Shown here one piece after another: positions 21,125 to 41,412 of a stretch of 64,000 nucleotides of DNA; position 1 is the first letter of the stretch, and the number at the start of each line of letters is the position of its first letter. The position numbers and the translations under genes are program-made. Below the pieces are notes generated by a model, which worked only from the letters and a program-made list of their open reading frames with translations, ran no database searches and was not told the origin of the DNA. This DNA is from a virus, in the IMG/VR virus record IMGVR_UViG_3300020000_000010, positions 1 through 64,000 of that record. One strand, given 5' to 3'.

Positions 21125-23410
21125 ATGCCTGAAGATAAATTTAAACAATACTTACTAGATAAAAAGAAGTGGGAATCTCATTATAATAAAGATCTTGCTC
21201 CTATAGAAGATTGGAAAACAAATTTCTTAAAAGAAAATCCAGATAGTTCTTTTGTAGGACAGAAAGATATTCCTTTATCTTCGGGTTTAATAAATAGAGG
21301 ATTATATATTAATCAAGGAGGAATACCTACTCAGGTTAAACAATTTAATATTAATCCTGTTTCAAGACCTAAACTAGAAGCAGATACTTTAAATCCTATT
21401 ATTCCTAGTATTAATAACCAGGAAAGAGGATTAAGAACTCCAAGTAACTTAAACCCTATTGAAAATAAACCAGATAGTATTCCTTTTACAAAGTTTACTA
21501 CAGGACAGTATAATACTCCTAATGCTCCTTATGGAGAATATATGGATGAAGGAAAAAGAGTTAATGTAACTAAAGATGAAGCCTCTAAAATGGGTTTTAT
21601 TAGAAAGAATGGAGGTTTTATGAGTGGTTATTCTAAAAGTAAAAAATATTATTCTCCTGATCAAAAGGATTATGAATACTTAAAAGGAGTAGGAAGTTCT
21701 GGTATTCAAGGATATTATGATCAAGGAGGAGACCTTAAAGACTACTATAATACTCAATTAACCAAAGATGAAAACCTGGCTAAAGGATTATTATCTACAG
21801 GTTTAGGAGCAGTAGGATCTATCTTTGGAGGCCCAGTAGGAGGAGCAATAGGTTCAACCTTAGGCACAGGAATAGGAAGTTTCTTTAATAGAGGAGGAGG
21901 AATGACTACTGAAAGAAATCCTTATATAGATATAGATTATAAGAGACAACATGATGGTAGTAATAACTTAATTACAGAAATCCCTAAGACTGCTGGAACT
22001 CATGAATCTAATCCTAATAATGGAGTTAATATTTCAAACTATGATAGTTCTGTAGAGGGAAATGAAACAATAGATAATAAAAATAAATTTGTATTTTCAG
22101 ATAGATTATCTCCTAACGGAAGTAAAAGAACTTATGCAAGTTTAACTAAACCTTTAAATAAGAAATTAGATTTTAGAAAAGGAGATAAATTAACCCAAGA
22201 ATATGTACAAATAGAAATGGATAAACTAGCAGAAGATCAAGAGGCTCAAAAGCATCTTATGGATATTATGGATCAAGCTCATAAGTTATATGGAGGGATA
22301 ATGTCTATGGGAGGAGAAATGAAAGATGGAGGTTGGATTAAAGGAGCTATTAATCCCGAACATAAAGGATATTGTACTCCTATGACTAAAGAAACATGTA
22401 CTCCTCATAGAAAGGCTTTTGCTATGAGAGCAAAGGCTCATTTTAAAGACTTAGGAGGTTCTTTATATCCTGATGGAGGTAAACTAGGTAGTAAGAAAAA
22501 AGATCCTTATCAAGAAGAATTAGATGCTTATAGACAAAAACATCCCTGGGAATTTAATCCAGATGGTACTACTAAAATAGCTGAAGATCAAACTTTAAAT
22601 AGAGGTACTAATCCTGCTGGAAATTTTAATGAACCTCTTCCTAAAGGATCTGAAATTCAAAGAAGAGAGCCTATGGAATTAATGAAACCTATTTCTATGG
22701 CAGGAACTAGTGCTAATACTAAATTAAGAACAGATACTAAACCTTTACAGAAAATAGAAGAATCAGGATTAACTAATCCTACTAGTTCTAAATCTTTTAA
22801 AGGTTCTAAAGCTATTCCTTTTGCTCAATTATTAGGCCCAGCTTCTCAAATGTTAACTTCTTTAACCCAAAGAAATAATGATTTATCTAGGTTAAACTAT
22901 AGAACTCCAGAATTTACTCCTATAGATGAAACTTATGCTGCTAATTTAGCACAACAAGGACAAGACAGAATAGCAGCTACTACAGCTAATGCTATTAGAG
23001 GAACAGCAAATGATCAAGGAACTTATTTAGCTGCTTTATTAGCTTCTAATTCAGCAATGTTAGGAAGTCCAAATCAACCTTCTAATCTAGCTTATGATGC
23101 TATGAAAACAAATGTAGCAGGAAGAAATACTAATTCTATGCAAGTAGCAGGAATTAAAAATCAGAATATAGATGAAAGAGAAAAACTTTTAGATAATTCT
23201 AGAGAAGAATTTACAAATGCTTTATATAATGCTGGTGCTACTAGCGGAGGTATTTATAGAGATATTAATCAACCTAAACAAGATAAGGTAAATAATGATA
23301 TATTTACTAAGAATTTTGGTAATGTATTTAGTAACCTAGAACTTAATCCTGATGGAACTATTAAGGTTAAGAAAGTTTCTAAATATGGTGGTAAAATGAA
23401 AAAATGTTAA
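21125..23410 (+). CDS. Internal virion cargo/ejection protein with glycine-zipper TM segment
   Basis: GLGAVGSIFGGPVGGAIGSTLGTGIG; THESNPNNGV...VEGNETI...FVFSDRL; first gene of the RNAP block. Confidence 0.65.
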   Translation: MPEDKFKQYLLDKKKWESHYNKDLAPIEDWKTNFLKENPDSSFVGQKDIPLSSGLINRGLYINQGGIPTQVKQFNINPVSRPKLEADTLNPIIPSINNQERGLRTPSNLNPIENKPDSIPFTKFTTGQYNTPNAPYGEYMDEGKRVNVTKDEASKMGFIRKNGGFMSGYSKSKKYYSPDQKDYEYLKGVGSSGIQGYYDQGGDLKDYYNTQLTKDENLAKGLLSTGLGAVGSIFGGPVGGAIGSTLGTGIGSFFNRGGGMTTERNPYIDIDYKRQHDGSNNLITEIPKTAGTHESNPNNGVNISNYDSSVEGNETIDNKNKFVFSDRLSPNGSKRTYASLTKPLNKKLDFRKGDKLTQEYVQIEMDKLAEDQEAQKHLMDIMDQAHKLYGGIMSMGGEMKDGGWIKGAINPEHKGYCTPMTKETCTPHRKAFAMRAKAHFKDLGGSLYPDGGKLGSKKKDPYQEELDAYRQKHPWEFNPDGTTKIAEDQTLNRGTNPAGNFNEPLPKGSEIQRREPMELMKPISMAGTSANTKLRTDTKPLQKIEESGLTNPTSSKSFKGSKAIPFAQLLGPASQMLTSLTQRNNDLSRLNYRTPEFTPIDETYAANLAQQGQDRIAATTANAIRGTANDQGTYLAALLASNSAMLGSPNQPSNLAYDAMKTNVAGRNTNSMQVAGIKNQNIDEREKLLDNSREEFTNALYNAGATSGGIYRDINQPKQDKVNNDIFTKNFGNVFSNLELNPDGTIKVKKVSKYGGKMKKC

Positions 23411-23411
23411 T

Positions 23412-25295
23412 ATGAGATTTTATAATCCTACTCCTAGACAATATGAGTCTACTTATATAGATCAGAAGTTACCTTATGATTATTTATTAAAAGCTGGACA
23501 ACAGAAACAAAATAAATATGATGAGAATTTAGCAAAAGTTCAAGGACTTAAAAAAGAAATTATAGGACTTCCTATTGATCAAAGAGAAATTGCTGAAAAA
23601 CAGAAACTTATAGATAGTAAAATTAATGATTTTATAGGTTCTATTCCTAATCAAGATTATACTGAACCTGGTTTTCAAAGAAAATTATTACAAACACAAC
23701 AAGAGTTATCTACTATTCAAAGAGAATCTGCTAAAGCTTATTCTCAAAGACTGAAAGATGTTGAAGGATTAAAAGAACAAATATCTAAAACAACTGATCC
23801 TAACTATAAACAACATCTTGCTACTCAGTTAAAAGAATACTATAATCCTAATGGAGATCCTAATCTTGCTGCTAACTATAATGAACAAACAGGTACTTAT
23901 AATCCTGCTAACCAATTATCTCATTTTGATTATAGAAAAAGACCAGAGATAGATAAAGATTTAATAGATATTACCAAGAGTATTAATGAAGATAAAAAGT
24001 CTTGGTTAAGTAATACAGGGCAGACTATAGATCAATTTCATACTTCTTTAGCTAAAGGCTCTACTGAATTTATTAGTAGAAGCAAAGGAATTCAAAGTTT
24101 ATTAGCAAAATCTGGAGATGAGGATATGATTAAATCTTTATTAATACAAAAGAATCCAGATATATCTCCAAAAGAGTTAGATGCTTTATCTTCTTTAGAA
24201 TTACAACATAATAAAGTAGTAGATAAAAACGGTAATTTTATAGGATTTAATACTAGTACTTTTTCAGGTAAAGAATTACAATCTGCTTTAGATGCTGCTG
24301 TATATACTAAAAAGGATATTGATAGAAATATAATACAAGATCCTTTAGCTAATGCTAAACATCAAGAAGAATTGGCTAGTAAAACTACTTCTAGTCAATC
24401 AGAATCTTTAGCAAATACTGGATTAGCAGATATTACAAAAGATTTAGAATTTGATTCTAAAGGTAATTTAAAAGCAGATACTAAGAAAACTACTGTTAAA
24501 AGAGGTGGTTATGATGAATTTGGAGTTTATGATCCTAATAGAATAGATTATAAAGATACTGGAGAGATGGATCTTAATAAACTAGCAGAACATGTTAAAA
24601 TAGTTAAATCTATACAAGATAATCATCCAGAATTACAAGGATTAACGCCTAAGAAAACTGTAGAGGCTTATAGAAAAGCACAAACATCCTTAGCACAAGA
24701 ATCTATTCCTTTAAAATCAGTAAGTAATCAATTTGCTTTAGGTAAAGGAGATGCTATTGCTAGAAATAAAACACAAAGAAACTTCTATTTATATGATGGA
24801 AAAGAAAAAACCTTAGATGGTCAATTATCTACTGTTTTAGATAAACTAGGAATAGAAGAAAAAGATTTTGATAAAGCTCTTGAAAAAGGTATATCAGGAT
24901 ATACTCAAGCCGGGCCTAGCGCAGGTTCTTATTATTTAGAAGTCAAAGATTCTGATGGTAACTCAAGAAGGGTTATGATTTCTCCAGATAATGAAATGAA
25001 GAAAATATTTACTGCTTCTCAAGTAATTAATGATGCTAGAAAAACTCTTTCTAAACAAGTAGTTACACCTTATGAAGATCATCCAGATATTAAGATATTA
25101 GTAAACCCAACTATTCAAAAAGATGGTACTACTAAATGGCAATATGTAAAATTAAGATTAGATAATAATGGAAATCCTATAGAATTAGAACCTACTACTT
25201 TAGAAGAAATTAGAAAAGAAGAAAATGAGGCTTTAAAAGAGTCTGGTTATCTTGGAACAGAAGTAGGAATTTTAAAACCACATCAAGCAGAATAA
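23412..25295 (+). CDS. Internal virion cargo/ejection protein
   Basis: MRFYNP...Y...LPYD.L......KQ.KYD N-terminus; sits between the cargo and RNAP genes. Confidence 0.55.
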   Translation: MRFYNPTPRQYESTYIDQKLPYDYLLKAGQQKQNKYDENLAKVQGLKKEIIGLPIDQREIAEKQKLIDSKINDFIGSIPNQDYTEPGFQRKLLQTQQELSTIQRESAKAYSQRLKDVEGLKEQISKTTDPNYKQHLATQLKEYYNPNGDPNLAANYNEQTGTYNPANQLSHFDYRKRPEIDKDLIDITKSINEDKKSWLSNTGQTIDQFHTSLAKGSTEFISRSKGIQSLLAKSGDEDMIKSLLIQKNPDISPKELDALSSLELQHNKVVDKNGNFIGFNTSTFSGKELQSALDAAVYTKKDIDRNIIQDPLANAKHQEELASKTTSSQSESLANTGLADITKDLEFDSKGNLKADTKKTTVKRGGYDEFGVYDPNRIDYKDTGEMDLNKLAEHVKIVKSIQDNHPELQGLTPKKTVEAYRKAQTSLAQESIPLKSVSNQFALGKGDAIARNKTQRNFYLYDGKEKTLDGQLSTVLDKLGIEEKDFDKALEKGISGYTQAGPSAGSYYLEVKDSDGNSRRVMISPDNEMKKIFTASQVINDARKTLSKQVVTPYEDHPDIKILVNPTIQKDGTTKWQYVKLRLDNNGNPIELEPTTLEEIRKEENEALKESGYLGTEVGILKPHQAE

Positions 25296-28200
25296 TGCCT
25301 ATAAATTTAAAAGATATTATAATTGGTGAGAAAAAACCAATAGAATCTAATTTATCCTTTACCAAGATACTTAGAGAAAGTCCTGATAAAGGAGAATCTA
25401 CAGATATTCAATTAGGACAATATGGAGTAAGTAACTCACAATATGATACTAATGTTACTCCTGAAAATGTTAAGAATCTTGAGGAGATTAGAGCAAATAA
25501 ACAATCTACTTGGGATAAAGCAGGAAATGGTTTAGCAAATCTTGCAGGAAGAACTATTACCTCTGGAGCAGAAGGAATATTAAATCCCTTTATAGGTACT
25601 TTTAATGCTATTAAAGATGGTCAACTAAGTTCATACTATGATAATCCTTTTACTAGAACTTTAGAGGAAGTAGATAAGCAAATTAAAGAACAAGTTCCTT
25701 TCTATTCTAGTAATCAAGAGAAGGAAGCACATGGTTTTGAGAAACTACTTTATGGAAATACTCTATGGAGAGATGTTCTTGATGGAGTAGGATATTCTTT
25801 AGGAGCTATTGCAGGAGGAGGAGTATATAGTAAAGTCTTTCAAGGATTGGCTAAAATGTCTGCTGTAGGAAAAGCAGGAGAGTTTATAGATAAACTACAC
25901 AATATAGAAAATGCTTCTGATAAACTTAAATATATTGAAGGAGTAAATACTACTAATAAGATTAAAGATGGTGCTCAGAATGGAATTATAGCAGGATTAG
26001 GAGCTATGGCAGAATCTGGGGCTAATGCTAGAGGAGATAAAGATGAATTCATTAGAAATATGACTAATGAAATTACTAAAGGCACTAGAGAATTAACAGA
26101 AGAAGAATCTAAACATGTTCAAGATTTAGCAGATGAAGTAGGAAATACTTCTTTTGCTTTGAATATGCCTATAATTATGTTAGACAACTGGATTACTTTT
26201 GGTAAATCAGTATTTGGTAATAAGTTAACAGATAAGCTAAACCTTAAGGAACTAGGAGAAGGATTAGTAAAAAAAGATGGTAAATATGAGGCTATTAAAG
26301 GAATAGTAGATAAATCTTATGGTACTAGAAAATTTATAGAACCAATTATTTCTGAAGGATTCTTTCAAGAGCAATCTCAATATGGTATTACTAAAGGTAC
26401 TAATGATTACTATAAGAAGAAATATTATAATCCAGAAGCAGCAGATTTTATAGATTCTTTTGGAGAAGGAGTATATCAGGCTTATGGAACTAAAGAAGGA
26501 TGGGATCAAGGAATTATAGGAGCTTTATCTGGTGGATTAATGGGTAATGCTACTACTTTAATAACTGAAGGTACTAAAGCTTATGTAGATCCTAATAACT
26601 ACCAAGCAGCAGCTAATTCGTTAAACAATCTACCTACTAAAAAGATATACACAGATCTTATAGATAAGGCTATGAGACATGGTAATCTAGTAAAAGAACA
26701 GAAAGAATCTCTAGATAATAATGATACTTTTAGTTATGAAAATGCTAAAAATGATGATTTTATAAATTATGCTTTTACTAAGATTTCTTATGGTAAAACT
26801 GATGATCTTATAAAACAATTAGAAGAATATAAAGGAATGTCTGAAGAAGAGTTTAAATCAAACTTTGGAACTACTATAGACTATAATGAGTTTACTAAAA
26901 ATAAACAATCTATAACTCAATTTATTGAAGATAAGATTAATAAGGTTAAAGATGTACAAAGAGCTTATAGTATTATAGATGAGAGATTTCCAGATGCTTC
27001 AGAAGGAAATAAAGAAAGATTAGCTTATGCTTCTCTAACAATAGATAATTCTAGACAAAGAAAAAATAAGTTAGGCCAGGAGGTTAATCAAGTATTATCT
27101 GGCTATCATCCTAGTTTAGGTTTTGTAGAACAAGATCCTATTTTAGCTTCTAACTATAGTACTTTAAATACTAATGAAAAGAAGAAATATGTAAAAGCTT
27201 TAGATAAATCAGGAGTTCTAAATCCTATGGATAAAGATACTATATTAGAGAAGTTAGATGATATAGATAAACTAGAAGAAAGGGAATTACAGTTTGTTAA
27301 AGAATATAAGGAACTATCTAAAGATCATGTACAAAAAGCCAATGATATAGTAGATAATGAAGTTAAAAAAAAAGTTAATAAAGCAGTAAATAATCCAGAA
27401 GAAAAACCACCTATAGATACAAAAAAGGGAAAGGTAGAAAAACCTAAACCAGTTTCTTCTAATACAGTAATTACTGAAAAACCAGAACTTAATATAGATA
27501 ATTTTGTTTATGATATTATTAATGGAAATATAGACAAATCTCCAGAAGCAATAGAATTTTATCAGAATAATAAAGAAGAAATAGAAAAAAGATTAGTAGA
27601 AGAAAGAGCTAAACCAGTAGAAGTAACACAGAGTTTAGATGATTTATTAAAAACTATTAAAAAATCTATTCCTGAAGAAACTAAAGGTATTTTTCCTACT
27701 ATAAGTAATAGTAATGAAATAAGAATAGAAAAGGGATTATCTACTGAAAAAGAGATTCTAGATGTACTTCTTCCTATGATTAAAAAAGGAGAAGACTTTA
27801 ACAAATATATAAAGTTAAAAAAGGTTAAATCAAGATATGATAAAACTATAAATATTGTATTAGTTAATCTTAAAACTCCTGAAGGAATAGAGCTTAAATT
27901 AGGAAATATACAAAGTCCTGATAAAATAAAAGATGAACAAATAAAGAAGTTATATGATTCTTTAACTCCAGAAAAAGAATATTCTCAAGAAGATTTACAA
28001 AAGATGGGAGTTTCTTTTACTTTAAGTAAAGGAGAGTTTGATTATTTAACTGAAGAAAATATAGAAGGTACTTTAGTAAAAGATATTACTTATCCTATGA
28101 AAGGGGAGTATATTATAGATACTGAAGGAGAAAAAGCTATTGTAGGTTCTGCTTTTAAGCCTAAAGATTTTTTAGAAACTGTAAAAAATATTCCAAAAAA

Positions 28201-31200
28201 TAAAGATGGTTCTAGTTTAGGAAGATATATATTAGTTATACCAGAAGAAACTGGAAATAGATTTGTTGCTGTTTATCCTACTAAATTAAAAGCAATTAAA
28301 GAGATAGAACCTTTATTTAAAGAATTTCAGAATAAAGCCTTACAACTTAAAAAAGAACCTAATGAAAGTAAAAGAAAGGAACTTGCTTCTGAATTTAATA
28401 GTTCTATAAAATCTAAATATTATATTGGTTTAAAAGGACAACCTGGAACTTTATTTAGTTTAGAGGTTTCTCCTGATGGAAGTATAAGATTAGTTACTGA
28501 AATTAAAGTAGGTGAGAACCTAGTAAAAGCAGATAAACCAATATATGTAGATAATATAAATAAAGAGGATTATACTTTTGATAATCTATTAAGAGATCTT
28601 AATAAGAAACTAAAAAATGTTACTTTAACTACAGATTCTTTCAAAGTTTATTTAGCTAAAGATGCTACTACTATTCCAAAGAATAAGATAGGAGAGAATT
28701 TTACAACTTTCTTAACTCCAGAATTGGTTAAAAATAGAAATCTTAAAGTTCTATTTGATCAAGAGTTTAAACAAGAATCTGAAGTTCCTAAAGAAGAACC
28801 TAAAGTTAAAACCTTAGTTTCTAAGGAAGTAAAAGAACAACCTATAGAAAGTAGAATAAAAGAATTAGAAGAAAAAAGAAAAACTGCTAAAGGAGTTGAA
28901 AAAGCTAAACTAACTAAAGAATTAAATAAGTTAAAGAAAGATATTGGTTTTCAGGACTTTGAAGAAGCTGCTGAGAAAATAGGAACTAAAACTGAAGAAG
29001 TTTTATCTCAAGAAGAAATTTCTTGGTTAAAAGATAATTTACCAGACTTTATTAAGATAGATGATATTAGTAATATTAAACTAAGACTTAATAAGTTAGG
29101 AACTACTTGGGGAGCTTTTAAAGATAATATAATTTATCTAAATCAAAATGCAGGTAAAGGAACAGGATACCATGAAGGATTCCATGCTATCTTTAGAAGC
29201 CTTCTAACAGAGGATCAGATATCTTTATATACTAAACTAGCCAAGAAAGAAATGAATCTTTCTAAAGCAGAATTAAACACTAAAATTAATGATATTAAAG
29301 AAAGACATCCTTCTCTTAATAATCAACAATTAGAAGATTTGGTTTATGAGGAATATTTAGCAGATAAATTTGCAGATTGGAAAGTTAATAAAGGAACTTC
29401 TACTAATTCTATATTTAAATCATTCTTTAAGAAAATACAAGATTTCTTTAAGTGGTTGTTTAACATTGATGAATCTTTAGAATCCTTATTTGATAATATA
29501 GATAGAGGAGTATTTAAATCTAGTATTCAACAAGAAAATAAATTTACTTCTATTAACAAACCTGTATATAAAGCTTTACCTGCTAGTCCTAAAACAGAAA
29601 TAGATCCTATTACTGGAAAAGAATTTAATACCAGAAGATTTCTACCTAGTACTAGAAGTACAGAGATTATAAATACATTTGCTGCTAAACTAAAGAGAGC
29701 TAGTGAGATAAAGGAAAATAAGGGAAGACCTATGCCTGAAGTTTTATTAGAATTGATTGATAGTAGGATTCAGAGAATGTTTTCAGAAGAAACAGATAAT
29801 TATTTAGAAAGTTTACCAGAAGTTCAAAAAACTCTTTTGGAAGAAAAGAGAGATGATGAATTTTGGGCTATTACAGAAGGTGTAGAAATCCTTAAAGAAC
29901 AAATCTTTAAAAAGATTAATTCTATTAAACCTACTGAAGAAATGGATGCTAACCATGATGATCAGGGAACACAATTAATGATTTGTGATTCTTGGACTAT
30001 AGGAGGTGAAGAATCTTTATCTGTAATAGTAAGAGATTGGATGGAATTTAGTACCTATAAAAAACTTGATGAAATTACAGGATCTTTAGAAGATTTTGCT
30101 ATAGATTCTAAGTTTGCTTATAATGGATTAACTAGAGGTTTAGCAGGATTAGAAGAATCTGATATTCTTCCAAGAATGATTGCTTTATCAGAAGATAATG
30201 ATAATATTAATGGAGTATTACAATTATTACTTCAAGATACAGGAATGACTATTGATGAAGTTGGTAAATTAACAGAACCTACTAAAAATCACAATTTAGT
30301 AAGGATGTTAATAGTATCTTTTAAGAAATATAAAGCTAACCAATTATTTAGTGAATTAGAACCTATATTTGGAAAAGATGGATTTTTAGATGGTTTTGAA
30401 ACAAAAGTATATAATGCCAATACTAATGATCCTAAGAAAATACAAATTTCTAGTTGGTCGGAAGAATTTGAAAAAGTAAAAGATAAAAAGGAATTTTTAA
30501 AAGATACTACTTCTGAAATATCTCAATTATTTAGATCAGAAGATACTTTTAAATCAGAAGAAAGTATTAAAGAAAATACTAAAAAAATACAATCTTTATT
30601 TAAACAATTAGGAATTGATTTAAGTTCTGGATATATTAGATATTCTCTATACAAAATTATAGAAAATGAAAATATATTAACAGAAAAACAAAAGACTTTT
30701 ATGGATTCTTTTATAGAAGTTGTTCCAATTAATCCTAATGAAGTTTTTGGAGTTATTAAAAACCTAATAGACAAAGAGATAGATTGGTATTCTGATGAAG
30801 GTATCTTAGGAAGATTGTCAGATCTAGCAGAAAATAATGCAGTATTTGATGAAACTATAGGAAACTCTTCTTTCAAAAATGCAGATGGAGAAACTGTTTG
30901 GGATATTATTCACGGAAGTTATGTTCTAGAAGAAATAACTAGAATAAATAATGAAGCTTATAGAAGCTCTCTAAAGGATGATAATTTCATTAAGCATAAC
31001 TTACTACTAACAAAGTATGATAAGTTCTTAAACACTCTTAAAATTAATATTACAGATGGTCTAAGAGATACTTCTAAAGATGGTACTTCAGAATCTAAAG
31101 AAGGTAAGGTATTTGGAGATTTTACAGAAAGAGAATATTTATTAAATGTTCTTGCTTATTTTGCTGAACAGAAGCAACTTAAGGGAGAAACTCATCCTTC

Positions 31201-34200
31201 TACTTACTATGTGTTTAGACAGAATGAGGCTTCTAATACTGCTTATGTAGCTAAAATGCCTGTACAAGAATTAAGTAAAAATGGTAAAGCTAATCAATCA
31301 GCAATAGAACAAGTATTTGATAGTTTGTTTAAACCAGAATATGAAAGAATATCAAGAGAATGGAAAGAAACTAATAAAACAGGTTCTTTTATTCCAGGAA
31401 ATATTAAAGGATTTAATGACAGTTCTATAGGTAGAGCTTTTAGCTTTACAGAATTTAACTACTTAGAGCAATATCTTGGAAAAGATGTTTATGAAACTCT
31501 TATAGAAAGTGCTAAAAATGAGGAAAATATAAAAGATAGAGAAGAACTTGTTAAGAAAGCTATTGAGAATTATCTTAATGATAGTATATCTGATTTTAAA
31601 AAGAAACTTGAAGAGAATGATCTTATAGAAATTGATGAGAATAATAATATTAAATATAATAAGTTATTACCTTCTAAATTAGTTACTCCTTATAAAAACC
31701 ATGATGAGGCTTTAGCAGAGGTATTTTTAAATGATTATATAATGTCTAGTAATCTTAATCAACTAATGGATGGAGATTATGGTAAAACTAGAAAAGATAA
31801 AGTAGATATTACTAAGAGACATAAAGGAGCTATGGGTTCTGGTATTAACTATGGTTCTGGTAATCACAGTATTTCCTTTATTAAAGATATTGATGTTTAT
31901 GTGGTTACTACACCAGAAGATAGTTCTTTAATAGATATAGTAGAAGTTAGAGAAGATAAATATATAGGAAGTAATGGTAAGGAATATACTAAAGATCAAG
32001 TATCTAAGATTACAACTAATGATGCTCAATCTTATAGTAGTATCTATCATAAGATCTTTAGTTTAACAAGATTGGGTAAACTATCTGATAGACATAGAGC
32101 AATCTATAAAGATATTCTACAATTTACTAAACTAGATAAAAACGGCAAAGTAGTTAGAAATTGGAATATAAATAAGAAAGATCAAAGATATTTAGAATTA
32201 ACTAATTCTTCTTCTAATCCAGATAAGACTGTAACCTTTGGTAGAGATATTTATATTAAAACATCTGAAACTCATTTGCTTAGAGGATTTATATCTTATG
32301 TAAAAGACCAAGATGTTCCTAAATTTATTAAATTAACAGATCAATTATTTGATTTAAGAGATACTAATGGCTCTAAACAAAGTAAAGAACTTATTAAAGA
32401 GATTGTTACCCTCTATAATCCATTACCAGGGAAAGAATATTGGCATAATCTGGCTCAACAGATGGATTTACATGGTATAGACCAAGTAGTTACAGAATCT
32501 GCTTCTAAAGGAGCTACCCTAACTCCAATAGATAGTGAACAAGAAGGATTTGATCTTTCTAAATCTATGATGGAAGTTCCTAATGTTTATAAAAGAGAAC
32601 AAATGGAAACTCCTACTGGTAAAAGTGTTATTACAGATTCTACTCAGTTAATGCAGTTAATTGATACAGAGCAAGATGATAATACAGAAGTTAGTTTTAA
32701 AGGAGAAACTATAACTGTAGGAAAACTTAGAGAGATTTATAGGAATCTTATGAGTAGGTCTAGAGGTAATGCTTTTAAAACAGCTTTAACTTATATTATA
32801 GAAAAAGATTCTAATGGTAAAGAAATTTTTGGAAAAAGCAAATTAGATAAAAAAGTAGAAAGAACTATTAATGAATCTGGAAGTGATGATTTCTTAATGG
32901 AATTATTTAGTACAAACGATATAGGAATTACTAAATTTAACTGGAATATGCTTCCTTTAATTGATAAAGCAGAAGCAATAGTTCTTGCACATTTTAGTAA
33001 AGGAGTATTATCACAGAAAGTTAATGGTACTAAGGTATCTTTGGTTTCCTCTAAAGGAGTTAAAATAGTTAGAGATGATTCTGGTAAAGTTGTATTATCT
33101 AACACTATCTCTAAAAATCCAGAAAAATATAAAGATTATGAATCTTCTGAATTAAAATATAATGTTAAAGATCCTGAAACAGGGGAAATATATTCTGAAT
33201 GTATTCTTTCAGAAAGAGTATTAACTAAAGCAGGATTAAAGATAGGAGATACTATTCCTAAAGAATTAGCATTTATGTTGGGTGTTAGGATTCCTACTGA
33301 CGATAAACACTCTATGATAGCTCTTAGAGTAGTAGATATTCTTCCTAATTATATGGAAGGTACTGGATTATTCCCAGATAAGATTGTACATCTCTCAGGA
33401 GCAGATTTTGATATTGATAGTTTATATATTCAAACTCCTAGTTATTATCTACAATATGAAAATAACAAATCTACAGAAAAGACTAAACCTATTAAACATG
33501 GTTCAGAAACTAATTCTATAGATAGGTTTGAAGGGTTTAAAGAATATCTATTAACAGATAAAGAGTTTAAAGCAGTATTTAGTGAATTATTAGAGAATGA
33601 TTCTAGATATAAAGTAATGAAGTTAGAAGATAGATCTGAGTTAGAAAAACTAGATTTTGAATCTAATGAAAGTTATAATGAGGCTTTAGAACTATATACT
33701 AAAGAATTAGAGGATATTAAAGATAAAATAGTTTTACAAACTATGGAATACTTTGGTTATCCTTTAAATCATAAAGACTATCAAAAATATATAGATAATC
33801 CTAAAAAAGGGGAATTAAATAAGTTAGTTATTGATAATGAGATACTTGAAGCAAGATTAGGATTATTAACTAATTCTCATATTCAGAAAGAGATAGCACA
33901 TGAAAAAACAAGTACTGATCCTTTTTCAGAAGAAGCAGACTTTATAGATGGTATTAAACCTATTCAGGAGGGCTTAAATGTTAAATATAGGAGTACTTCA
34001 GACTTAGTTGGTAAGTTTATAGCTTTCTTAAAAAATGCTGCTGGAAAGAAAGGAATTGGGCCTGTTGCTAATTCTTTACAATTATTTACTTTATTATCTA
34101 AAGCTAAAGCAAGATTAAATACTGATGCTTATAAACTAACAATAACTAGTAAAGATGATACAGTATATACTACTCAAAAGTTTAGAAACCTAAATACAGC

Positions 34201-36613
34201 AGGAGAGAGAATAGTAGGTTTATTAGGAAGTCTATTAAATACAATGACTGATAATGCTAAAGATCCTATAGCAGGTAGAATGAATTTAAAGTTAAACCTT
34301 TTAAATACTTATTCTATGCTATTAATGCAAGGATTAAGTAAAAGAAATTCTACTTTAATATTAAATGCTCCTATTATACAAGAGTATTCTAAAAAGAAAG
34401 AAACTGCTACTTTTGGAGTTAAAACAGCTTTTGAGGCTAGTGAGAAATCTTGGCAAATTAAAAATAGTTTATATTCTAAATATTTAGGTAAAGAACTTAC
34501 GGAAGAAGAAATAGAAGCAGAATTTAAAGATGTTACTTTTAATGCTAACCAAATAGAAGAACTTATTAAAGGAAATCTATCTAAAGAAGAATCAGATCTA
34601 TTAAATGCTCAACTATTTTATGCTTGGTTAAAGATTGAAGATCAAGCAGATACTTTATCTAATGTTAACTTTTTATTAAAATCTAATAAAGGTCTGCCTT
34701 CTAGCTTCAATGAATTAGAAAATGGTTTTAGTGAAGCTATAGGAGAATTAGGATTATCTGAATTAATAGGTTATCCTACTAAATTTGAGAATAAATCTCC
34801 TATAGATATGGTAGATATTATAAAAGGAGATAAACATACTTTAACTAATATGAAAATTATTAAGAAAGTATTAGAAGAAGCTCCTAATTTATTTATATCT
34901 CAATCTAAGGGTTTTAAAGAAGAATTTAATAAATTACTTACAAACCTTAAACCAGGTTCTATTCTTAAATCAGAAGTAAAGAAATCAATAGAAAGAGACT
35001 TCTTAGGATTCTTATCTACTAGAGCTTATAGAAATAAAATTAAAGAGATTATAGATAGTAAAGATACTAACGAAAATATGAAAGCTAGATTTACTAGAAA
35101 ACTAGCTAGTTTAAATGATTCTTTAGTTTTTCCTGAGTTAGATTCTACTAAACAAACATTGGCTAGAAGACTTTCAGAACTTAAAGGTTCTAATAATGAA
35201 TCTATTAGAACAAATGCTGCTATTAGACATCTTAATTATGAGTTTAAGTTTAGTAAGACTCCTGAAGGAATATTAGTTGAAAATAAAGATAATAAAAAGA
35301 AAAGAGATATAGTTACTACTAGAACTTGGGCTAAACCTTCTAAGACTTTAGTTAATGATATTATAGATGGTTTTAAACAATTATATTTAGTTCCAGAAAC
35401 TCATGATTTTGCTGTAGATATGTTTAACTATCTTATGGTTACTGATAATATGAGTTTTAGGTCTGGTAGTTTTGTTAAGTTTCTAGCCCCTTTTATGTTT
35501 AAAGAATTATCTGGAGGATTAGAAAGTCTTACTCAAGAATTGGCTAAAGAGAAACCTGATTATAAGAAAGTATTAGGAGAAGATATAAAACCTTTAGCTA
35601 AAGAGTTTAGGGAGATTTTTAATAGATATAAACCTAATTCTGATAAATTAATATATATAAATCCTAAAACAGTAACTAATATTATTAAAGAAGATAAATT
35701 AGTTTTTACTGAAATAAAGGATTCTGAAAAAGAATATTTAGGAAAGGTGTTAAAACAAGTAAAAGATAGTAAAGCTTTACAGTTTCCTGAATATATTAAA
35801 TATGGTAAAGAATATTATAAATTAGATCAATCTTTGAATGAAGAAGGAGAAAATACCATAGGTTATAGTTCTACTTATACTAAGACTTTTCCTTTTGGTT
35901 ATAGAGGATTAAGCCCTTATTATCAGAGTTTAGAGAATAATTTGAATACTTATGAGAGGACTTTTGGTAAAACTGAAGGTAAGAGTAAGGTAGATGAAAT
36001 TAAACTCCCTATAACTAATAAAATATTATTTGAAGAAGAACAGTCTTCAGGATATAGAGAAAGAACTATAAAAAATGCTTCAGCAGATGCTACTATTGCA
36101 TTGGCAGTAGATTTTAACAGTGCTGGAGAAAAATTAACAAAGTCTTCTGTAAAAGGACAAGATAAAAAATATATTCCTATAGACGCTAGTAGTTTGGAAA
36201 TAACTCAAGAAAGAGTAGGTAAAATTGTTGAATCTTTAAATTCTGTAAATGCTAAGTCTTTAAATATTGCAGGAAATGGTATATATACTATGAAAGGTAA
36301 ATATACTCAAGAAGAAGTTGACAAATTTACTTATGATTTATTAAAAGAGGTATTAGAGTCTTCTAATTTAAAGAATAAAATAGAATCTATAAGAACAGGA
36401 GGACAAACAGGATTTGATGAAGCTGGAGCTAAAGCAGGTATAAAATTAGGAATAAAGACTTTGGTTCTTGCTCCTAAAGGATGGAAATTTAGAAATGTAG
36501 AAGGAATTGATATTTCTAGTGAAGAACTGTTTAAAGAAAGATTTGAAGAAAATAATAATGATATAACACAATCAGATGTAGATAATCTACCTGATGTAAC
36601 AGAACCTTGTTAA
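25295..36613 (+). CDS. Giant virion-packaged DNA-dependent RNA polymerase polyprotein (zincin HExxH domain, two-barrel RNAP core, C-terminal SLOG domain)
   Basis: GADFDIDSL catalytic loop (DFDID at 33404-33418), GVRIPTDDKHSM, TNDAQSY, MTDNAKDP; YHEGFH (29171-29185)...EEYLADKF; C-terminal RTIKNA..LNIAGN..GGQTGFD. Confidence 0.9.
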   Translation: MPINLKDIIIGEKKPIESNLSFTKILRESPDKGESTDIQLGQYGVSNSQYDTNVTPENVKNLEEIRANKQSTWDKAGNGLANLAGRTITSGAEGILNPFIGTFNAIKDGQLSSYYDNPFTRTLEEVDKQIKEQVPFYSSNQEKEAHGFEKLLYGNTLWRDVLDGVGYSLGAIAGGGVYSKVFQGLAKMSAVGKAGEFIDKLHNIENASDKLKYIEGVNTTNKIKDGAQNGIIAGLGAMAESGANARGDKDEFIRNMTNEITKGTRELTEEESKHVQDLADEVGNTSFALNMPIIMLDNWITFGKSVFGNKLTDKLNLKELGEGLVKKDGKYEAIKGIVDKSYGTRKFIEPIISEGFFQEQSQYGITKGTNDYYKKKYYNPEAADFIDSFGEGVYQAYGTKEGWDQGIIGALSGGLMGNATTLITEGTKAYVDPNNYQAAANSLNNLPTKKIYTDLIDKAMRHGNLVKEQKESLDNNDTFSYENAKNDDFINYAFTKISYGKTDDLIKQLEEYKGMSEEEFKSNFGTTIDYNEFTKNKQSITQFIEDKINKVKDVQRAYSIIDERFPDASEGNKERLAYASLTIDNSRQRKNKLGQEVNQVLSGYHPSLGFVEQDPILASNYSTLNTNEKKKYVKALDKSGVLNPMDKDTILEKLDDIDKLEERELQFVKEYKELSKDHVQKANDIVDNEVKKKVNKAVNNPEEKPPIDTKKGKVEKPKPVSSNTVITEKPELNIDNFVYDIINGNIDKSPEAIEFYQNNKEEIEKRLVEERAKPVEVTQSLDDLLKTIKKSIPEETKGIFPTISNSNEIRIEKGLSTEKEILDVLLPMIKKGEDFNKYIKLKKVKSRYDKTINIVLVNLKTPEGIELKLGNIQSPDKIKDEQIKKLYDSLTPEKEYSQEDLQKMGVSFTLSKGEFDYLTEENIEGTLVKDITYPMKGEYIIDTEGEKAIVGSAFKPKDFLETVKNIPKNKDGSSLGRYILVIPEETGNRFVAVYPTKLKAIKEIEPLFKEFQNKALQLKKEPNESKRKELASEFNSSIKSKYYIGLKGQPGTLFSLEVSPDGSIRLVTEIKVGENLVKADKPIYVDNINKEDYTFDNLLRDLNKKLKNVTLTTDSFKVYLAKDATTIPKNKIGENFTTFLTPELVKNRNLKVLFDQEFKQESEVPKEEPKVKTLVSKEVKEQPIESRIKELEEKRKTAKGVEKAKLTKELNKLKKDIGFQDFEEAAEKIGTKTEEVLSQEEISWLKDNLPDFIKIDDISNIKLRLNKLGTTWGAFKDNIIYLNQNAGKGTGYHEGFHAIFRSLLTEDQISLYTKLAKKEMNLSKAELNTKINDIKERHPSLNNQQLEDLVYEEYLADKFADWKVNKGTSTNSIFKSFFKKIQDFFKWLFNIDESLESLFDNIDRGVFKSSIQQENKFTSINKPVYKALPASPKTEIDPITGKEFNTRRFLPSTRSTEIINTFAAKLKRASEIKENKGRPMPEVLLELIDSRIQRMFSEETDNYLESLPEVQKTLLEEKRDDEFWAITEGVEILKEQIFKKINSIKPTEEMDANHDDQGTQLMICDSWTIGGEESLSVIVRDWMEFSTYKKLDEITGSLEDFAIDSKFAYNGLTRGLAGLEESDILPRMIALSEDNDNINGVLQLLLQDTGMTIDEVGKLTEPTKNHNLVRMLIVSFKKYKANQLFSELEPIFGKDGFLDGFETKVYNANTNDPKKIQISSWSEEFEKVKDKKEFLKDTTSEISQLFRSEDTFKSEESIKENTKKIQSLFKQLGIDLSSGYIRYSLYKIIENENILTEKQKTFMDSFIEVVPINPNEVFGVIKNLIDKEIDWYSDEGILGRLSDLAENNAVFDETIGNSSFKNADGETVWDIIHGSYVLEEITRINNEAYRSSLKDDNFIKHNLLLTKYDKFLNTLKINITDGLRDTSKDGTSESKEGKVFGDFTEREYLLNVLAYFAEQKQLKGETHPSTYYVFRQNEASNTAYVAKMPVQELSKNGKANQSAIEQVFDSLFKPEYERISREWKETNKTGSFIPGNIKGFNDSSIGRAFSFTEFNYLEQYLGKDVYETLIESAKNEENIKDREELVKKAIENYLNDSISDFKKKLEENDLIEIDENNNIKYNKLLPSKLVTPYKNHDEALAEVFLNDYIMSSNLNQLMDGDYGKTRKDKVDITKRHKGAMGSGINYGSGNHSISFIKDIDVYVVTTPEDSSLIDIVEVREDKYIGSNGKEYTKDQVSKITTNDAQSYSSIYHKIFSLTRLGKLSDRHRAIYKDILQFTKLDKNGKVVRNWNINKKDQRYLELTNSSSNPDKTVTFGRDIYIKTSETHLLRGFISYVKDQDVPKFIKLTDQLFDLRDTNGSKQSKELIKEIVTLYNPLPGKEYWHNLAQQMDLHGIDQVVTESASKGATLTPIDSEQEGFDLSKSMMEVPNVYKREQMETPTGKSVITDSTQLMQLIDTEQDDNTEVSFKGETITVGKLREIYRNLMSRSRGNAFKTALTYIIEKDSNGKEIFGKSKLDKKVERTINESGSDDFLMELFSTNDIGITKFNWNMLPLIDKAEAIVLAHFSKGVLSQKVNGTKVSLVSSKGVKIVRDDSGKVVLSNTISKNPEKYKDYESSELKYNVKDPETGEIYSECILSERVLTKAGLKIGDTIPKELAFMLGVRIPTDDKHSMIALRVVDILPNYMEGTGLFPDKIVHLSGADFDIDSLYIQTPSYYLQYENNKSTEKTKPIKHGSETNSIDRFEGFKEYLLTDKEFKAVFSELLENDSRYKVMKLEDRSELEKLDFESNESYNEALELYTKELEDIKDKIVLQTMEYFGYPLNHKDYQKYIDNPKKGELNKLVIDNEILEARLGLLTNSHIQKEIAHEKTSTDPFSEEADFIDGIKPIQEGLNVKYRSTSDLVGKFIAFLKNAAGKKGIGPVANSLQLFTLLSKAKARLNTDAYKLTITSKDDTVYTTQKFRNLNTAGERIVGLLGSLLNTMTDNAKDPIAGRMNLKLNLLNTYSMLLMQGLSKRNSTLILNAPIIQEYSKKKETATFGVKTAFEASEKSWQIKNSLYSKYLGKELTEEEIEAEFKDVTFNANQIEELIKGNLSKEESDLLNAQLFYAWLKIEDQADTLSNVNFLLKSNKGLPSSFNELENGFSEAIGELGLSELIGYPTKFENKSPIDMVDIIKGDKHTLTNMKIIKKVLEEAPNLFISQSKGFKEEFNKLLTNLKPGSILKSEVKKSIERDFLGFLSTRAYRNKIKEIIDSKDTNENMKARFTRKLASLNDSLVFPELDSTKQTLARRLSELKGSNNESIRTNAAIRHLNYEFKFSKTPEGILVENKDNKKKRDIVTTRTWAKPSKTLVNDIIDGFKQLYLVPETHDFAVDMFNYLMVTDNMSFRSGSFVKFLAPFMFKELSGGLESLTQELAKEKPDYKKVLGEDIKPLAKEFREIFNRYKPNSDKLIYINPKTVTNIIKEDKLVFTEIKDSEKEYLGKVLKQVKDSKALQFPEYIKYGKEYYKLDQSLNEEGENTIGYSSTYTKTFPFGYRGLSPYYQSLENNLNTYERTFGKTEGKSKVDEIKLPITNKILFEEEQSSGYRERTIKNASADATIALAVDFNSAGEKLTKSSVKGQDKKYIPIDASSLEITQERVGKIVESLNSVNAKSLNIAGNGIYTMKGKYTQEEVDKFTYDLLKEVLESSNLKNKIESIRTGGQTGFDEAGAKAGIKLGIKTLVLAPKGWKFRNVEGIDISSEELFKERFEENNNDITQSDVDNLPDVTEPC

Positions 36614-36614
36614 T

Positions 36615-39422
36615 ATGGCAGATAAAAGTAAATGTAGAGTAAAGTATAAAAAGAATATTGACGAAGATATTAAGAAATCTATAGTTAAAAATGCTACTTC
36701 GTATAAAGTTGAAGAAGATAAAATTACTATACCTATTGGGGAAAATATAAAAACATTAGAGGCTACTAAATCTGTTGCTCAAAAACTTTCAGAAGAAGTT
36801 AATAATAAATATAATGCTGAAAAATATGGAGAAGTTACCTCTATAGAACCACATGAAGAAGGAACAGATATTAATATTCATATTCCAGATCTTCTATTAG
36901 ATGCTTATGAAGTTAAGTTTAATGAAAGAACTTTACAAGAACTAAGAGAAGCTAGAGAATCTAGTCCTTATAAGAAACAATATGTGTTCTTTACTAGGAG
37001 GTTAAAAGCATTAGAAAAAGATCTAAATAAATTGGATAAAGAATCTATAGAATATGAACAAAAATCTGTAGAAATAGATAATCTTTTAACCCAATTTGAA
37101 AGTGCTGTAGAATCTCAAGAACATGAACAATTTAGAGTTCTAGGAGCAGAAACATTAGATAGAGTAGAAGATTATATAACTAGAGTAGAAAAAGGAGAAC
37201 TTAAACTAACAAGTAAGAGTCTTGAATATTCTGAAGATGTAGCAGATACTTTTTCTGATTTTGAAGATTTATCAGATAGAGTTATTAAACTAAGAAAGAG
37301 ATTATATCCTTATATTAAAGAATTTACCTTAGATAGGATTAATAAATATAAAACAGAGAAAGAGGAGATTACTCAAGAAAAGGTAGATAATCAGAATAAA
37401 GATATAAATACTTTTACTAAAGGAACGGGTACTTTATCTGATTTAGCAAATTATATAGGAAGAACAATAGGACAGATTATTAAAGCTGCTCAAAATAGAG
37501 TTTCTACTAAAAATAAAAAGTTAACAGAAAAGATACAAAAAGAGATAGATCTTCTTTATGAGTATTCTAAGAAGAATAATATTCCTATACAGAATATGTA
37601 TGATATATTTATTCAAGAACATAAAGATACTTTGGTATTAACTAAACCTTTTTTAGATAAAGAAACAGAGAATCCTAATTATAAGAAAATTATAGAAACT
37701 CCTGAATTAAAGAGATTCTATAAATTCTACCAAGATACTATAGAAGAACATGAAAAATCTTTACCTATAAAAATGGGTAGATTCTTTATACCCAATATAA
37801 AGAAAAAGACTACTTTTGGTGTTATTAAATCTCTTATTCCTGTTAAAACTAATAAAGAAGGACAATTTGTGGGAGATGAAAATTTAATGGCTGATATATT
37901 AAATACTCAATATATCAAAAAGATTCCTTCAGATCAAAAATCAAGAGATTTAGGAGCTTCTTTATTACAGTTTGGAGCTTTTGCTAATAACTACGAAGAT
38001 ATGAGCAATATACTTCCTGAAACAAGATTATTACAGAAACAGTTAGAATATAAATATAATTCTGATGGTAAGCAAGTAGAAAGAACTTTTGTTAAATCAG
38101 CTGATCCTAGTAAAAGAGTTAATGGAAAAGAAAGTAATATATATAAGATGGTTGAAGGCTTTATAGAGATGCAGGTCAAAAATAATATGAAGCTTACGGA
38201 AGGTAAAATAAAAGTTGGAAATTTATATGATGAGGAGGGGAATCCTATAGGTGAAAAGTATATAAATGCATCAGATATTGCAGATACTGCCTTAAAATGG
38301 AACTCTTTATTAAGAATTGGATTTTCTCCAATTACAGCATTAAGCAACTGGTTATTTGGAGATGTGTCAAATATAATAGAAGCTGTAGGAGGAAGATTCT
38401 TTAATATAACACAATTACAACAAGCAACTAATATATTTTTTAATCAAAATTTTAATAAAGATTCTACCCTATATAAATGGTTAGAAAAACTTAATCCTTT
38501 AATGGAACTTGAAGATTTTGACCAAGTAGAAAAAGTTAAGTTAAAAACTTTAGAAAATAAAATGTCTCTTGAGAAATTTAAAGAATATTCTTATAGCATG
38601 CAAAAGAGTGGTGAAAAATTCTTACAATCAAGAACTATGCTTGCTGTATTAATAAAAGAAGGATATATTACGCCTAAAGGAGAAACTACTAAAGAAGGAG
38701 ATAATCTATCACAGAAAGAAATAGAGTTGTTAGCGGATAAAATTCAGAGGTTAAACCAAAGTATTCATGGTAGATATTCTAGCCGAGAATCAGCAGTTTT
38801 ACAACAATATACTTTATATAGACTTGTGTCACAATTTCGTAAATGGGTTCCAAGTGCTTTAGAATCAAGGTTTTCCAGTAAACATTTTGACGTGAGATTA
38901 GGTACAGAAATAGAGGGTAGATATGTTACTATGAAAAATCTTATAGTTAATTTATCTGATACTAGAAAAAGACTTTCTGAAGGTAAATTAACAGAATTAG
39001 AAATATATAATCTTAGGAAAACATTAACTGAAATTATATTAATGAGTGCTACATTCTTCTTATATGCTGGAATAAAAGGTTGGGATGATGATGAGAAAAA
39101 GAAAAGACTTAAAAATCCTTATGTTAAAGCAGGACTCTCATTACTAGGAAGAGTTAGTGGAGATATTGAATTCTTTTATAGTCCGGGAGAAGTAGTTAAA
39201 ATAACTTCTAATGCTATCCCTTTATCTAAAACAGTAGGTGATTTATTACAAGCTATTAAGTATTTGCCTGGAGCTTTAGGAGAAAAAGCATACTATAAAA
39301 CAGGAAGTAATAAAGGAAAACATAAATTTATTCATAAACTAGGAAGTGTAGTTCCTTTGGTAAAACCAGTACAAGATATTTTTAGAATAACCTCTGATAA
39401 TATACTTGAAGAACAACGCTAA
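36615..39422 (+). CDS. Large internal virion/ejection protein
   Basis: 935 aa, helical; HGRYS, QFRKWVP and a hydrophobic stretch before GWDDDE; last gene of the RNAP block. Confidence 0.55.
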   Translation: MADKSKCRVKYKKNIDEDIKKSIVKNATSYKVEEDKITIPIGENIKTLEATKSVAQKLSEEVNNKYNAEKYGEVTSIEPHEEGTDINIHIPDLLLDAYEVKFNERTLQELREARESSPYKKQYVFFTRRLKALEKDLNKLDKESIEYEQKSVEIDNLLTQFESAVESQEHEQFRVLGAETLDRVEDYITRVEKGELKLTSKSLEYSEDVADTFSDFEDLSDRVIKLRKRLYPYIKEFTLDRINKYKTEKEEITQEKVDNQNKDINTFTKGTGTLSDLANYIGRTIGQIIKAAQNRVSTKNKKLTEKIQKEIDLLYEYSKKNNIPIQNMYDIFIQEHKDTLVLTKPFLDKETENPNYKKIIETPELKRFYKFYQDTIEEHEKSLPIKMGRFFIPNIKKKTTFGVIKSLIPVKTNKEGQFVGDENLMADILNTQYIKKIPSDQKSRDLGASLLQFGAFANNYEDMSNILPETRLLQKQLEYKYNSDGKQVERTFVKSADPSKRVNGKESNIYKMVEGFIEMQVKNNMKLTEGKIKVGNLYDEEGNPIGEKYINASDIADTALKWNSLLRIGFSPITALSNWLFGDVSNIIEAVGGRFFNITQLQQATNIFFNQNFNKDSTLYKWLEKLNPLMELEDFDQVEKVKLKTLENKMSLEKFKEYSYSMQKSGEKFLQSRTMLAVLIKEGYITPKGETTKEGDNLSQKEIELLADKIQRLNQSIHGRYSSRESAVLQQYTLYRLVSQFRKWVPSALESRFSSKHFDVRLGTEIEGRYVTMKNLIVNLSDTRKRLSEGKLTELEIYNLRKTLTEIILMSATFFLYAGIKGWDDDEKKKRLKNPYVKAGLSLLGRVSGDIEFFYSPGEVVKITSNAIPLSKTVGDLLQAIKYLPGALGEKAYYKTGSNKGKHKFIHKLGSVVPLVKPVQDIFRITSDNILEEQR

Positions 39423-40983: not shown

Positions 40984-41412
40984 TTAAGCAACATCTGCTA
41001 AGTTTTTATTTTCTTGTAAATAAGCTCTATATTTATACATACTTGTTTCAAGTATTGTACAAGCTTCATTTAATCCTCCTCTATCGTCTAAGAAGATATT
41101 TGCATAAATTTTTCCATTCTTCCCATAAGGAACATCTATAGGATTAATATTTATAGCATCTATTGGAAGTCTTAATTTTTCACAATATTCTTGTATTTCA
41201 GGATATCTTTCCTGATTACAGGCAGTAAATATTACAATATAAGCTCCTGTTTCTCTTGCTATTTTAATAAGATTAATAGTCCTATCTAATTCTTCTAAAT
41301 CTTGTTTGCTTTTAAATTTCCACGGAGAAATTGTATCATCAAAATCTACAGCAACTATAATTTTACCATGTAATTGCCATTCTTGGAATAATCTATCTAT
41401 ATATTTATTCAT
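40984..41412 (-). CDS. Small cap-less HAD-superfamily phosphatase
   Basis: IIVAVDFDDTI (motif I), IVIFTA (II), KIYANIFLDDR (III/IV). Confidence 0.8.
   Translation of the reverse strand: MNKYIDRLFQEWQLHGKIIVAVDFDDTISPWKFKSKQDLEELDRTINLIKIARETGAYIVIFTACNQERYPEIQEYCEKLRLPIDAININPIDVPYGKNGKIYANIFLDDRGGLNEACTILETSMYKYRAYLQENKNLADVA

Follow-up and report, generated by a model that had tools for sequence, protein, structure and literature searches.

The closest points of comparison for the domain analysed here, a cpYpsA-type SLOG domain near the C-terminal end of a giant virion RNA polymerase, come from work on the SLOG superfamily and on phage-borne enzymes of ADP-ribose (ADPR) chemistry. The domain is encoded by IMG/VR virus record IMGVR_UViG_3300020000_000010, a 97.6-kb viral record estimated to be complete; positions 1 to 64,000 of that record are called the window, and coordinates are counted from its first letter. 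Proteins of the TIR/DrHyd/SLOG clade typically bind or cleave ribosyl linkages of nucleotides, and viral YpsA-like SLOGs were predicted by Iyer et al. in 2022 to act on ADP-ribose derivatives (PMC9503650). The portion of that survey consulted here describes viral SLOGs as typically free-standing, with fusions to helix-turn-helix, HNH, exonuclease, helicase, kinase, NADAR, Macro and DUF4326 domains, and it proposes either degradation of signals of the cyclic ADPR (cADPR) type or ligand-dependent regulation of the fused enzyme (PMC9503650). The domain in the window and its relatives fall into the same clade and have NADAR, DUF4326 and superfamily 1 (SF1) helicase partners and the ADP-ribose link in common with those viral proteins; unlike them, as far as the consulted portion goes, they include carriers that are crAss-like or N4-like virion polymerases and show an extra permutation, neither of which is mentioned there. 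To this picture we contribute a permutation test on the two halves of the domain, the size of the family and its restriction to mobile elements, a count of context switches, a full-length N4-type example and a negative result for an association with NARP1.

Three further systems are instructive. The SLOG domain of the Thoeris protein ThsA, which senses glyco-cyclic ADPR (gcADPR), belongs to the same superfamily and YpsA-like clade according to the consulted portion of the survey (PMC9503650), but it serves the host as a sensor and is joined to a SIR2 effector. Orphan phage NADARs such as AdfN/T4 gp30.3 are likewise small phage-borne hydrolases of ADP-ribose chemistry and erase DarT1 ADP-ribosylation of phage DNA (PMC11825919, PMC11125620); they differ from the SLOG module in fold and in that their activity is proven, while that of the SLOG side is predicted. 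The polyvalent proteins of Iyer et al. (2017) carry several effector domains on one large protein that accompanies the DNA (PMC5512222), which the present protein resembles, except that here the virion RNA polymerase itself acts as the carrier and that no PolyVal-type peptidase was detected in its 3772 residues (no Pfam match to such a domain at E ≤ 1 on the whole protein). That paper mentions neither SLOG nor YpsA nor NADAR, and the Crassvirales papers searched contain no mention of a SLOG domain. Few gut viruses are as abundant as the crAss-like phages, yet little is understood of what happens in the first minutes after they enter the host. A highly conserved, mobile and enzyme-like module of 177 residues is a clonable candidate for counter-defence at time zero, and the uncharacterised cpYpsA/SLOG clade gains a substrate hypothesis, namely ADP-ribose adducts or signals.

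A permuted cpYpsA-clade domain at the end of a virion RNA polymerase

The giant open reading frame (ORF) at 25295-36613 runs without interruption in translation table 11 and yields a product of 3772 aa. At its C-terminal end lies a SLOG domain of the cpYpsA clade, 177 residues long, self-contained and of enzyme type, which has been captured whole onto the virion RNA polymerase. The features concerned are the following.

25295 to 36613, plus strand: predicted crAss-type virion RNA polymerase polyprotein of 3772 aa, the carrier of the SLOG domain, assigned by homology and a DFDID motif
33404 to 33418, plus strand: DFDID, predicted metal-binding motif of the polymerase active site, aa 2704-2708, aligned to SGSDFDVD (Kehishuvirus) and SDFDID (cr10_1)
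36020 to 36550, plus strand: complete phage-type, re-permuted cpYpsA (SLOG) domain, from PF12694 and phrog_10774 matches, the ends of homologues, an AlphaFold2 model and 3IMK
36032 to 36277, plus strand: first half of the domain (Y-x2-RT-x2-N, D-x-T, GE-x-LT, NIAGNG), equivalent to the back part of the cpYpsA model
36389 to 36484, plus strand: second half of the domain (R-x-GGQTG-x-DE to APKGW) with the predicted nucleotide-binding GxD/E loop, equivalent to the front part of the cpYpsA model

The domain occupies aa 3576-3752, about 177 residues near the C-terminus, and the interval 36020-36545 given for it in a preliminary description was right to within a few codons. All the cpYpsA-type motifs quoted in that description are present near the end of the ORF and in the order given there: YRERTIKNA (aa 3587-3595), AGEKLT (aa 3610-3615), LNIAGNG (aa 3656-3662), GGQTGFDEAG (aa 3702-3711) and APKGW (aa 3726-3730). 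Its proposal that the domain is a SLOG is confirmed by three comparisons. Pfam family PF12694 (cpYpsA) matches a 237-aa piece at E 4e-12 with 46.5 bits, above the cut-off of 26.2 (37.1 bits with the whole protein as query, 32.7 bits in a scan of the phage's own genome); phrog_10774, a phage family of unknown function, matches collinearly and end to end (E 6.7e-32, profile positions 3-162 of 179); and among structures 3IMK matches best. Chance is far from accounting for such scores. The GG-x-x-G-x-D/E loop of the YpsA clade, whose GxD/E motif has a role in nucleotide binding (PMC6459960), is present as GGQTGFDE at aa 3702-3709. Within it G137, G138, Q139 and D143 (domain numbering) are invariant across 32 homologues, and the stretch equivalent to the catalytic PGG-x-GT-x-x-E motif of LOG-type nucleotide N-glycosidases reads S-A-G-E-K-L-T. 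All 37 family-invariant positions and about 25 near-invariant ones are kept in the domain, and many of them are polar (R, T, N, D, E, Q), in keeping with an active site. Composition gives no sign of a recent foreign origin: the G+C fraction of the domain (0.288) is close to that of the remaining ORF (0.274).

The segment order of the Pfam model, in which the GGQTG block comes first, is not that of the phage domain, where the halves are swapped. When the halves were scanned separately, the front 115 aa matched cpYpsA profile positions 46-125 (E 4.7e-8) and the back 73 aa matched positions 1-32 (E 0.006), with cpYpsA the sole family reported. The comparison with the sequence of 3IMK, a "putative molybdenum carrier" and the only solved relative found by sequence, agrees with this, as the front of the domain corresponds to chain residues 55-137 and the GGQTG block to residues 6-41. 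The permuted order claimed in the preliminary description is thus borne out on both counts. Thirty-one free-standing homologues were aligned with the domain; 20 of them start within three residues of its first residue, nearly all end a few residues past an F-K-x-R-F motif, and the order is the same in all. Because these homologues have the same ends and the same order, the swapped arrangement is the native topology of a distinct phage-type family and no local accident. The domain shows a third circular permutation within the cpYpsA clade, one that is typical of phages and plasmids, and from its alignment it is best described as a homologue of cpYpsA with a different circular permutation rather than as canonical cpYpsA. 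What it has in common with cpYpsA (PF12694, formerly "MoCo carrier"; 3IMK) is a sequence match above cut-off, the fold, 26% identity, and the GGQTG-x-D loop, Y-x2-RT-x2-N, D-x-T and G-x-x-LT. The differences are that the block that is N-terminal in cpYpsA (positions 1-32) stands last in the phage domain, that 3IMK has GGS-x-LT where the phage domain has GE-x-LT, and that phages and plasmids, not cells, are where the phage-type family occurs.

Structure prediction and a Foldseek search, which had been suggested as a check on the SLOG assignment, gave a confident model with 3IMK as the best match. The AlphaFold2 model, built from a 32-sequence alignment, is a compact alpha/beta structure of six beta-alpha units with a mean predicted local distance difference test (pLDDT) score of 91.2 and a predicted template modelling (pTM) score of 0.86, and it has the three-layer Rossmannoid alpha/beta fold of 3IMK. 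Foldseek aligned it to 3IMK with probability 1.00, a root mean square deviation (rmsd) of 2.5 over 109 columns and 26% identity, and VIA-align superposed model residues 6-123 on 3IMK residues 46-157 with Z 8.9 and rmsd 3.5 over 110 residues; its next matches were generic Rossmann-like proteins at Z 6.2-6.3. Both programs are sequential, and their alignments to 3IMK reach no further than the first 110-120 residues of the model. Structure and sequence together account for residues 46-157 and 6-41, respectively, of the 158 in 3IMK. ThsA, YpsA, LOG and DprA structures were not among the Foldseek and VIA-align matches listed, and for ThsA the same is true of the sequence matches listed; sequential aligners cannot cope with the permutation, and these absences are therefore no evidence against a SLOG fold.

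The carrier can be assigned as a Crassvirales virion RNA polymerase polyprotein by its DFDID motif and by homology, as the preliminary description had it. BLASTP matched about 360 aa around DFDID to the "putative RNA polymerase" of Bacteroides phage PhiCrAssBcn1 (Kehishuvirus, Steigviridae; E 7e-13), and the DFDID region also matched the 4460-aa giant protein of the uncultured phage cr10_1 (Suoliviridae; E 2e-6), with a second, weak match to that protein at the HExxH region (E 2e-4). The whole 3772-aa protein had no match among PDB sequences at E ≤ 0.01.

Distribution, mobility and partners of the family

Homologues of similar length number 350, with E values down to 3e-87, and are mostly free-standing proteins of about 177 aa that are 55-82% identical to the domain; a further 154 are longer fused forms. 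A profile search of 1.84 billion cluster representatives returned 2663 at E ≤ 1e-3 and 526 at E ≤ 1e-30, and of the 88 that were newly returned among the 150 best-scoring representatives, 70 are at least 2000 aa long. Our sample of viral loci consists of the 80 best IMG/VR loci related to the domain. In about 57 of the 80 the domain lies within an ORF of more than 1800 aa, and about 48 of these ORFs have DFDxD. Its position in the giant polymerase ORFs may be N-terminal, middle or C-terminal: the Kehishuvirus polymerase has its SLOG at residues ~89-257, the cr10_1 giant protein has it about 40 residues before the C-terminus, and in several proteins of about 900 aa, which represent a split-off C-terminal polymerase module, it stands before or after that module. 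In the reference phage set the module is missing from most polymerases of the crAss-like and N4-like kinds. A search of 185,579 prokaryote species, each represented by a single genome, gave only about 25 full-length matches, and the family is essentially confined to mobile elements, that is, phages and plasmids. The few cellular-genome copies that were checked lie on plasmid-like DNA, namely ~1-Mb Pseudomonas plasmids, a KfrA-bearing Pseudomonas defluvii contig and Thauera; one copy has a type I-F Csy3 gene beside it, and another forms a fusion with DUF4326. Many of the other prokaryote matches, few of which were checked, are on contigs of metagenome-assembled genomes that are possibly phage DNA.

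The module has moved between contexts repeatedly. A FastTree phylogeny of 291 domain sequences calls for at least 21 switches between the free-standing form and the crAss-type polymerase, and well-supported branches alone for at least 12 changes into or out of the crAss-polymerase context; many branches are weak or long, so these counts are rough. The nearest neighbour of the studied domain in the tree is a free-standing 188-aa protein with 82% identity. In pairs of polymerases the SLOG domains are 50-73% identical, against 21-37% for the adjoining polymerase segments, which suggests that the module has been exchanged horizontally or constrained far more strongly than its carrier, and probably both together. 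A search for close IMG/VR relatives of the C-terminal module of the polymerase, intended to find sisters without a SLOG, found none.

Two further kinds of carrier were found outside the crAss-type polymerases. The metagenomic protein P0287, 4234 aa long, is a full-length N4-type virion RNA polymerase by its matches to phrog_2206 (1049 bits) and to the Pfam family N4_RNAP_helical; a SLOG module interrupts it at aa 2854-3023, where the polymerase core gives way to the C-terminal part. A partial relative, P0180, has the same SLOG arrangement; its polymerase part matches by tblastn the virion polymerases of Schitoviridae, themselves without the module, and the fusion has no match among PDB sequences. 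The N4-type (T7-like) and crAss-type (two-barrel) polymerases are not homologous, and what is common to both is that they travel in the capsid and are ejected together with the DNA. Fusions of the module to PIF1/Dda-type helicases of SF1 also occur.

Free-standing members can lie next to helicase genes as well. Gp146 of Vibrio phage ICP1 (3998-4537 of its locus) is a free-standing family member whose gene overlaps by 4 nt the end of helA, which encodes the accessory helicase, and in Vibrio phage vB_CoeS_P1 the same translational coupling is seen with a Dda-like helicase. A literature search on ICP1 gp146 found nothing. Given the two unrelated virion polymerases and the ICP1 helA neighbour, there are genetically tractable systems in which the function could be settled.

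Within the giant ORFs of the 80 loci, the module is directly flanked in frame by a small set of domains, with confirmation from Pfam.

10 of 80 loci: NADAR, the commonest in-frame neighbour of the module in other phages
9 of 80 loci: DUF4326
5 of 80 loci: DUF7831
3 of 80 loci: AlkB-like dioxygenase

Elsewhere the SLOG is further fused to ART-PolyVal and Kinase-PolyVal. The NADARs are experimentally shown DNA ADP-ribosyl-glycohydrolases that phages use against DarTG1 (PMC11825919, PMC11125620). Some homologues are themselves interrupted: P0028 and P0034, both free-standing and of 345 aa, carry an insert of about 165 residues (~75-240) in the loop just before the NIAGNG strand, and other homologues carry DUF7831 at the same loop. 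The ~165-residue insert has no Pfam match and no relative in the 80 viral loci.

Proposed function and its alternatives

By analogy with these relatives and partners, the module is most likely an injected glycohydrolase-type enzyme for ADP-ribose-containing substrates. Polymerase packaging and ejection are known for the cultured relatives phi14:2 and crAss001 (PMC10136315), and it is plausible that in the carrier phage, too, the module is delivered with the DNA. As cargo ejected with the genome, it would reach the host at time zero, as a few copies beside the entering DNA. With so few copies, it would have to act catalytically or in cis and not as a sponge. The predicted reaction is hydrolysis of the ribosyl (glycosidic) linkages of ADP-ribose-containing molecules, at a predicted active site composed of the GGQTG-x-DE loop and the invariant residues of Y-x2-RT-x2-N, D-x-T and GE-x-LT. 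That the ligand comes from NAD/ADP-ribose chemistry is plausible and would match the prediction for viral SLOGs in the consulted portion of the survey (PMC9503650). The likeliest targets would be ADP-ribose adducts that host ADP-ribosyltransferase defences set on the incoming DNA or the first transcripts, and a polymerase or helicase carrying the module would run into such adducts. We modestly prefer adducts on nucleic acid over soluble signals because of the carriers and of the NADAR and AlkB neighbours, and we put forward this identification of the targets tentatively, as a serious possibility that falls short of an even chance.

The independent recruitment of the same module by two unrelated injected polymerases and by SF1 helicases leads to a more far-reaching suggestion, which we consider speculative: the module could be a template-clearing enzyme, a new class of glycohydrolase for ADP-ribose (or a similar bulky adduct) on nucleic acids, working in cis with motors that track along DNA. 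If true, template clearing would be a phage form of transcription-coupled repair against DarT-like defences and would complement the NADAR and macrodomain erasers.

Several points weigh against the proposal of an injected hydrolase of adducts. The best-studied SLOG of the YpsA clade, that of ThsA, is a non-catalytic sensor, and conserved motifs are no proof of catalysis. The partner domains DUF4326 and Macro suit soluble ADP-ribose derivatives equally well, and the fusion to the polymerase may be only a ticket into the capsid. The N4-type example represents one protein lineage (P0287/P0180), and the association with NADAR is drawn from other genomes, the source phage genome having no NADAR gene. 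The evidence for packaging comes from the cultured relatives, and our literature search found no biochemical result for any member of the family.

The most direct competitor, somewhat doubtful in our view, keeps the injected hydrolase and changes its substrate to soluble NAD-derived immune signals or toxins (cADPR isomers, ADPR conjugates), with the polymerase as a mere vehicle. ThsA-type SLOGs bind gcADPR, and the module often has as its neighbour DUF4326, for which a phosphatase activity on ADPR products is predicted. Degradation of such signals is also the published proposal for viral SLOGs in the consulted portion of Iyer et al. 2022 (PMC9503650), and there is a precedent in RyDEP, a phage glycosidase recently found inserted in a NARP1 operon, which supplies NARP1 by converting cADPR to ADPR (PMC13232231). 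The source phage itself has a NARP1-like pair 3 kb away from the domain, in an operon in which a NAMPT-like gene (phrog_448, E 3e-158) and a PRS-like gene (phrog_619, E 1e-56) flank a 142-aa gene, and the preliminary description had suggested that the injected SLOG and this expressed operon form a two-stage counter to NAD-based immunity. The co-occurrence counts speak against such a functional pair, which we reject: NAMPT or PRS relatives lie within 10 kb of the domain in none of the 80 viral loci, and among 49 whole viral records in which a SLOG is fused, PF04095 (NAMPT) turns up in one, and in none of the 16 that are at least 90% complete. Because SLOG-bearing polymerases do not travel with NAMPT, the proximity in the source phage looks coincidental, and the same counts detract from a soluble substrate. 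The preference of the module for polymerase, helicase, NADAR and AlkB contexts also indicates nucleic acid over free metabolites, and a supply at time zero would be less obviously needed against signals that are made after infection has been sensed.

Other readings dispense with catalysis altogether. In one, which we think unlikely, the module would be a sensor in which an NAD+- or ADPR-type ligand switches the attached polymerase or helicase on or off. Control of a fused effector by the SLOG of ThsA is a precedent for this, and the nucleotide-binding GxD/E loop is conserved; a regulatory role for SLOG fusions to nucleic-acid enzymes is raised in section 3.7.4 of the survey, part of the portion consulted (PMC9503650). 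Against it stand the variable position of the module, its unrelated carriers, the frequent free-standing forms and the domains spliced into its loops, as a specific allosteric interface would be hard to keep through all the context switches on the tree; moreover, most reference crAss-like and N4-like polymerases lack the module, so transcription does not depend on it. That the C-terminal piece is an appendage for packaging, ejection or structure with no enzymatic role, or a decaying passenger, seems very improbable to us. Its place at the extreme end of a cargo protein would fit, as would the acidic tail and the terminal Cys facing Cys7 of the next protein of the cargo block (see below), but every family-invariant residue is intact, the model is compact and confident, and the domain shares 82% identity with a free-standing homologue, whereas its carrier polymerase stands without close relatives. 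We give least credence of all to the idea of a sponge, floated among other roles in the preliminary description, that would sequester Thoeris-type signals stoichiometrically. Although the ThsA SLOG binds gcADPR tightly and phage sponges such as Tad1 and Tad2 exist, the known sponges are small, strongly expressed early proteins, and a sponge is hard to reconcile with a cargo protein of few copies per particle: from the known low copy numbers of virion polymerases, the injected module could not be expected to soak up a micromolar signal. The many invariant polar residues, too, suggest chemistry beyond binding alone. Of the proposals that do involve catalysis, the injected hydrolase of adducts on nucleic acid remains the one we prefer, for the reasons given above.

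The remainder of the carrier and the neighbouring genes

The remaining features of the carrier and its surroundings are as follows.

29171 to 29185, plus strand: HEGFH, a motif alleged to mark a zincin, recognised as a motif only
36551 to 36610, plus strand: acidic tail of 20 residues after the SLOG domain, from the translation, with Cys3772 as the last residue
36615 to 39422, plus strand: next gene of the transcription/cargo block, 935 aa, from the ORF list and its context

The idea that the SLOG domain might be released by a zincin domain of the polyprotein goes back to the HEGFH motif alone, and no Pfam peptidase family matches aa 1150-1500 around it even at E ≤ 10. The acidic tail is missing from most free-standing homologues. 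The 3772-aa polymerase contains three Cys, one of which is the terminal residue, and the 935-aa protein encoded downstream, which has no Pfam or PHROG match, has a single Cys, residue 7, that faces the polymerase-terminal Cys3772 (window 36608-36635). If anything, this arrangement hints at a chain end that is meant to stay connected and not to be cut off. The 761-aa protein encoded two genes upstream of the polymerase (21125-23410) also ends in Cys, and the 627-aa protein between them has none.

In the NARP1-like operon, the 142-aa gene (40984-41412, minus strand) matches phrog_1238, "phosphoheptose isomerase", at E 2e-22 and has no Pfam match; the RyDEP glycosidase of a NARP1 operon (PMC13232231) lends this insert interest of its own. 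Upstream of the polymerase, a 1567-aa protein (16367-21070, plus strand) matches the virion structural families phrog_28748 and phrog_15100, which places the polymerase gene at the end of a structural/cargo block.

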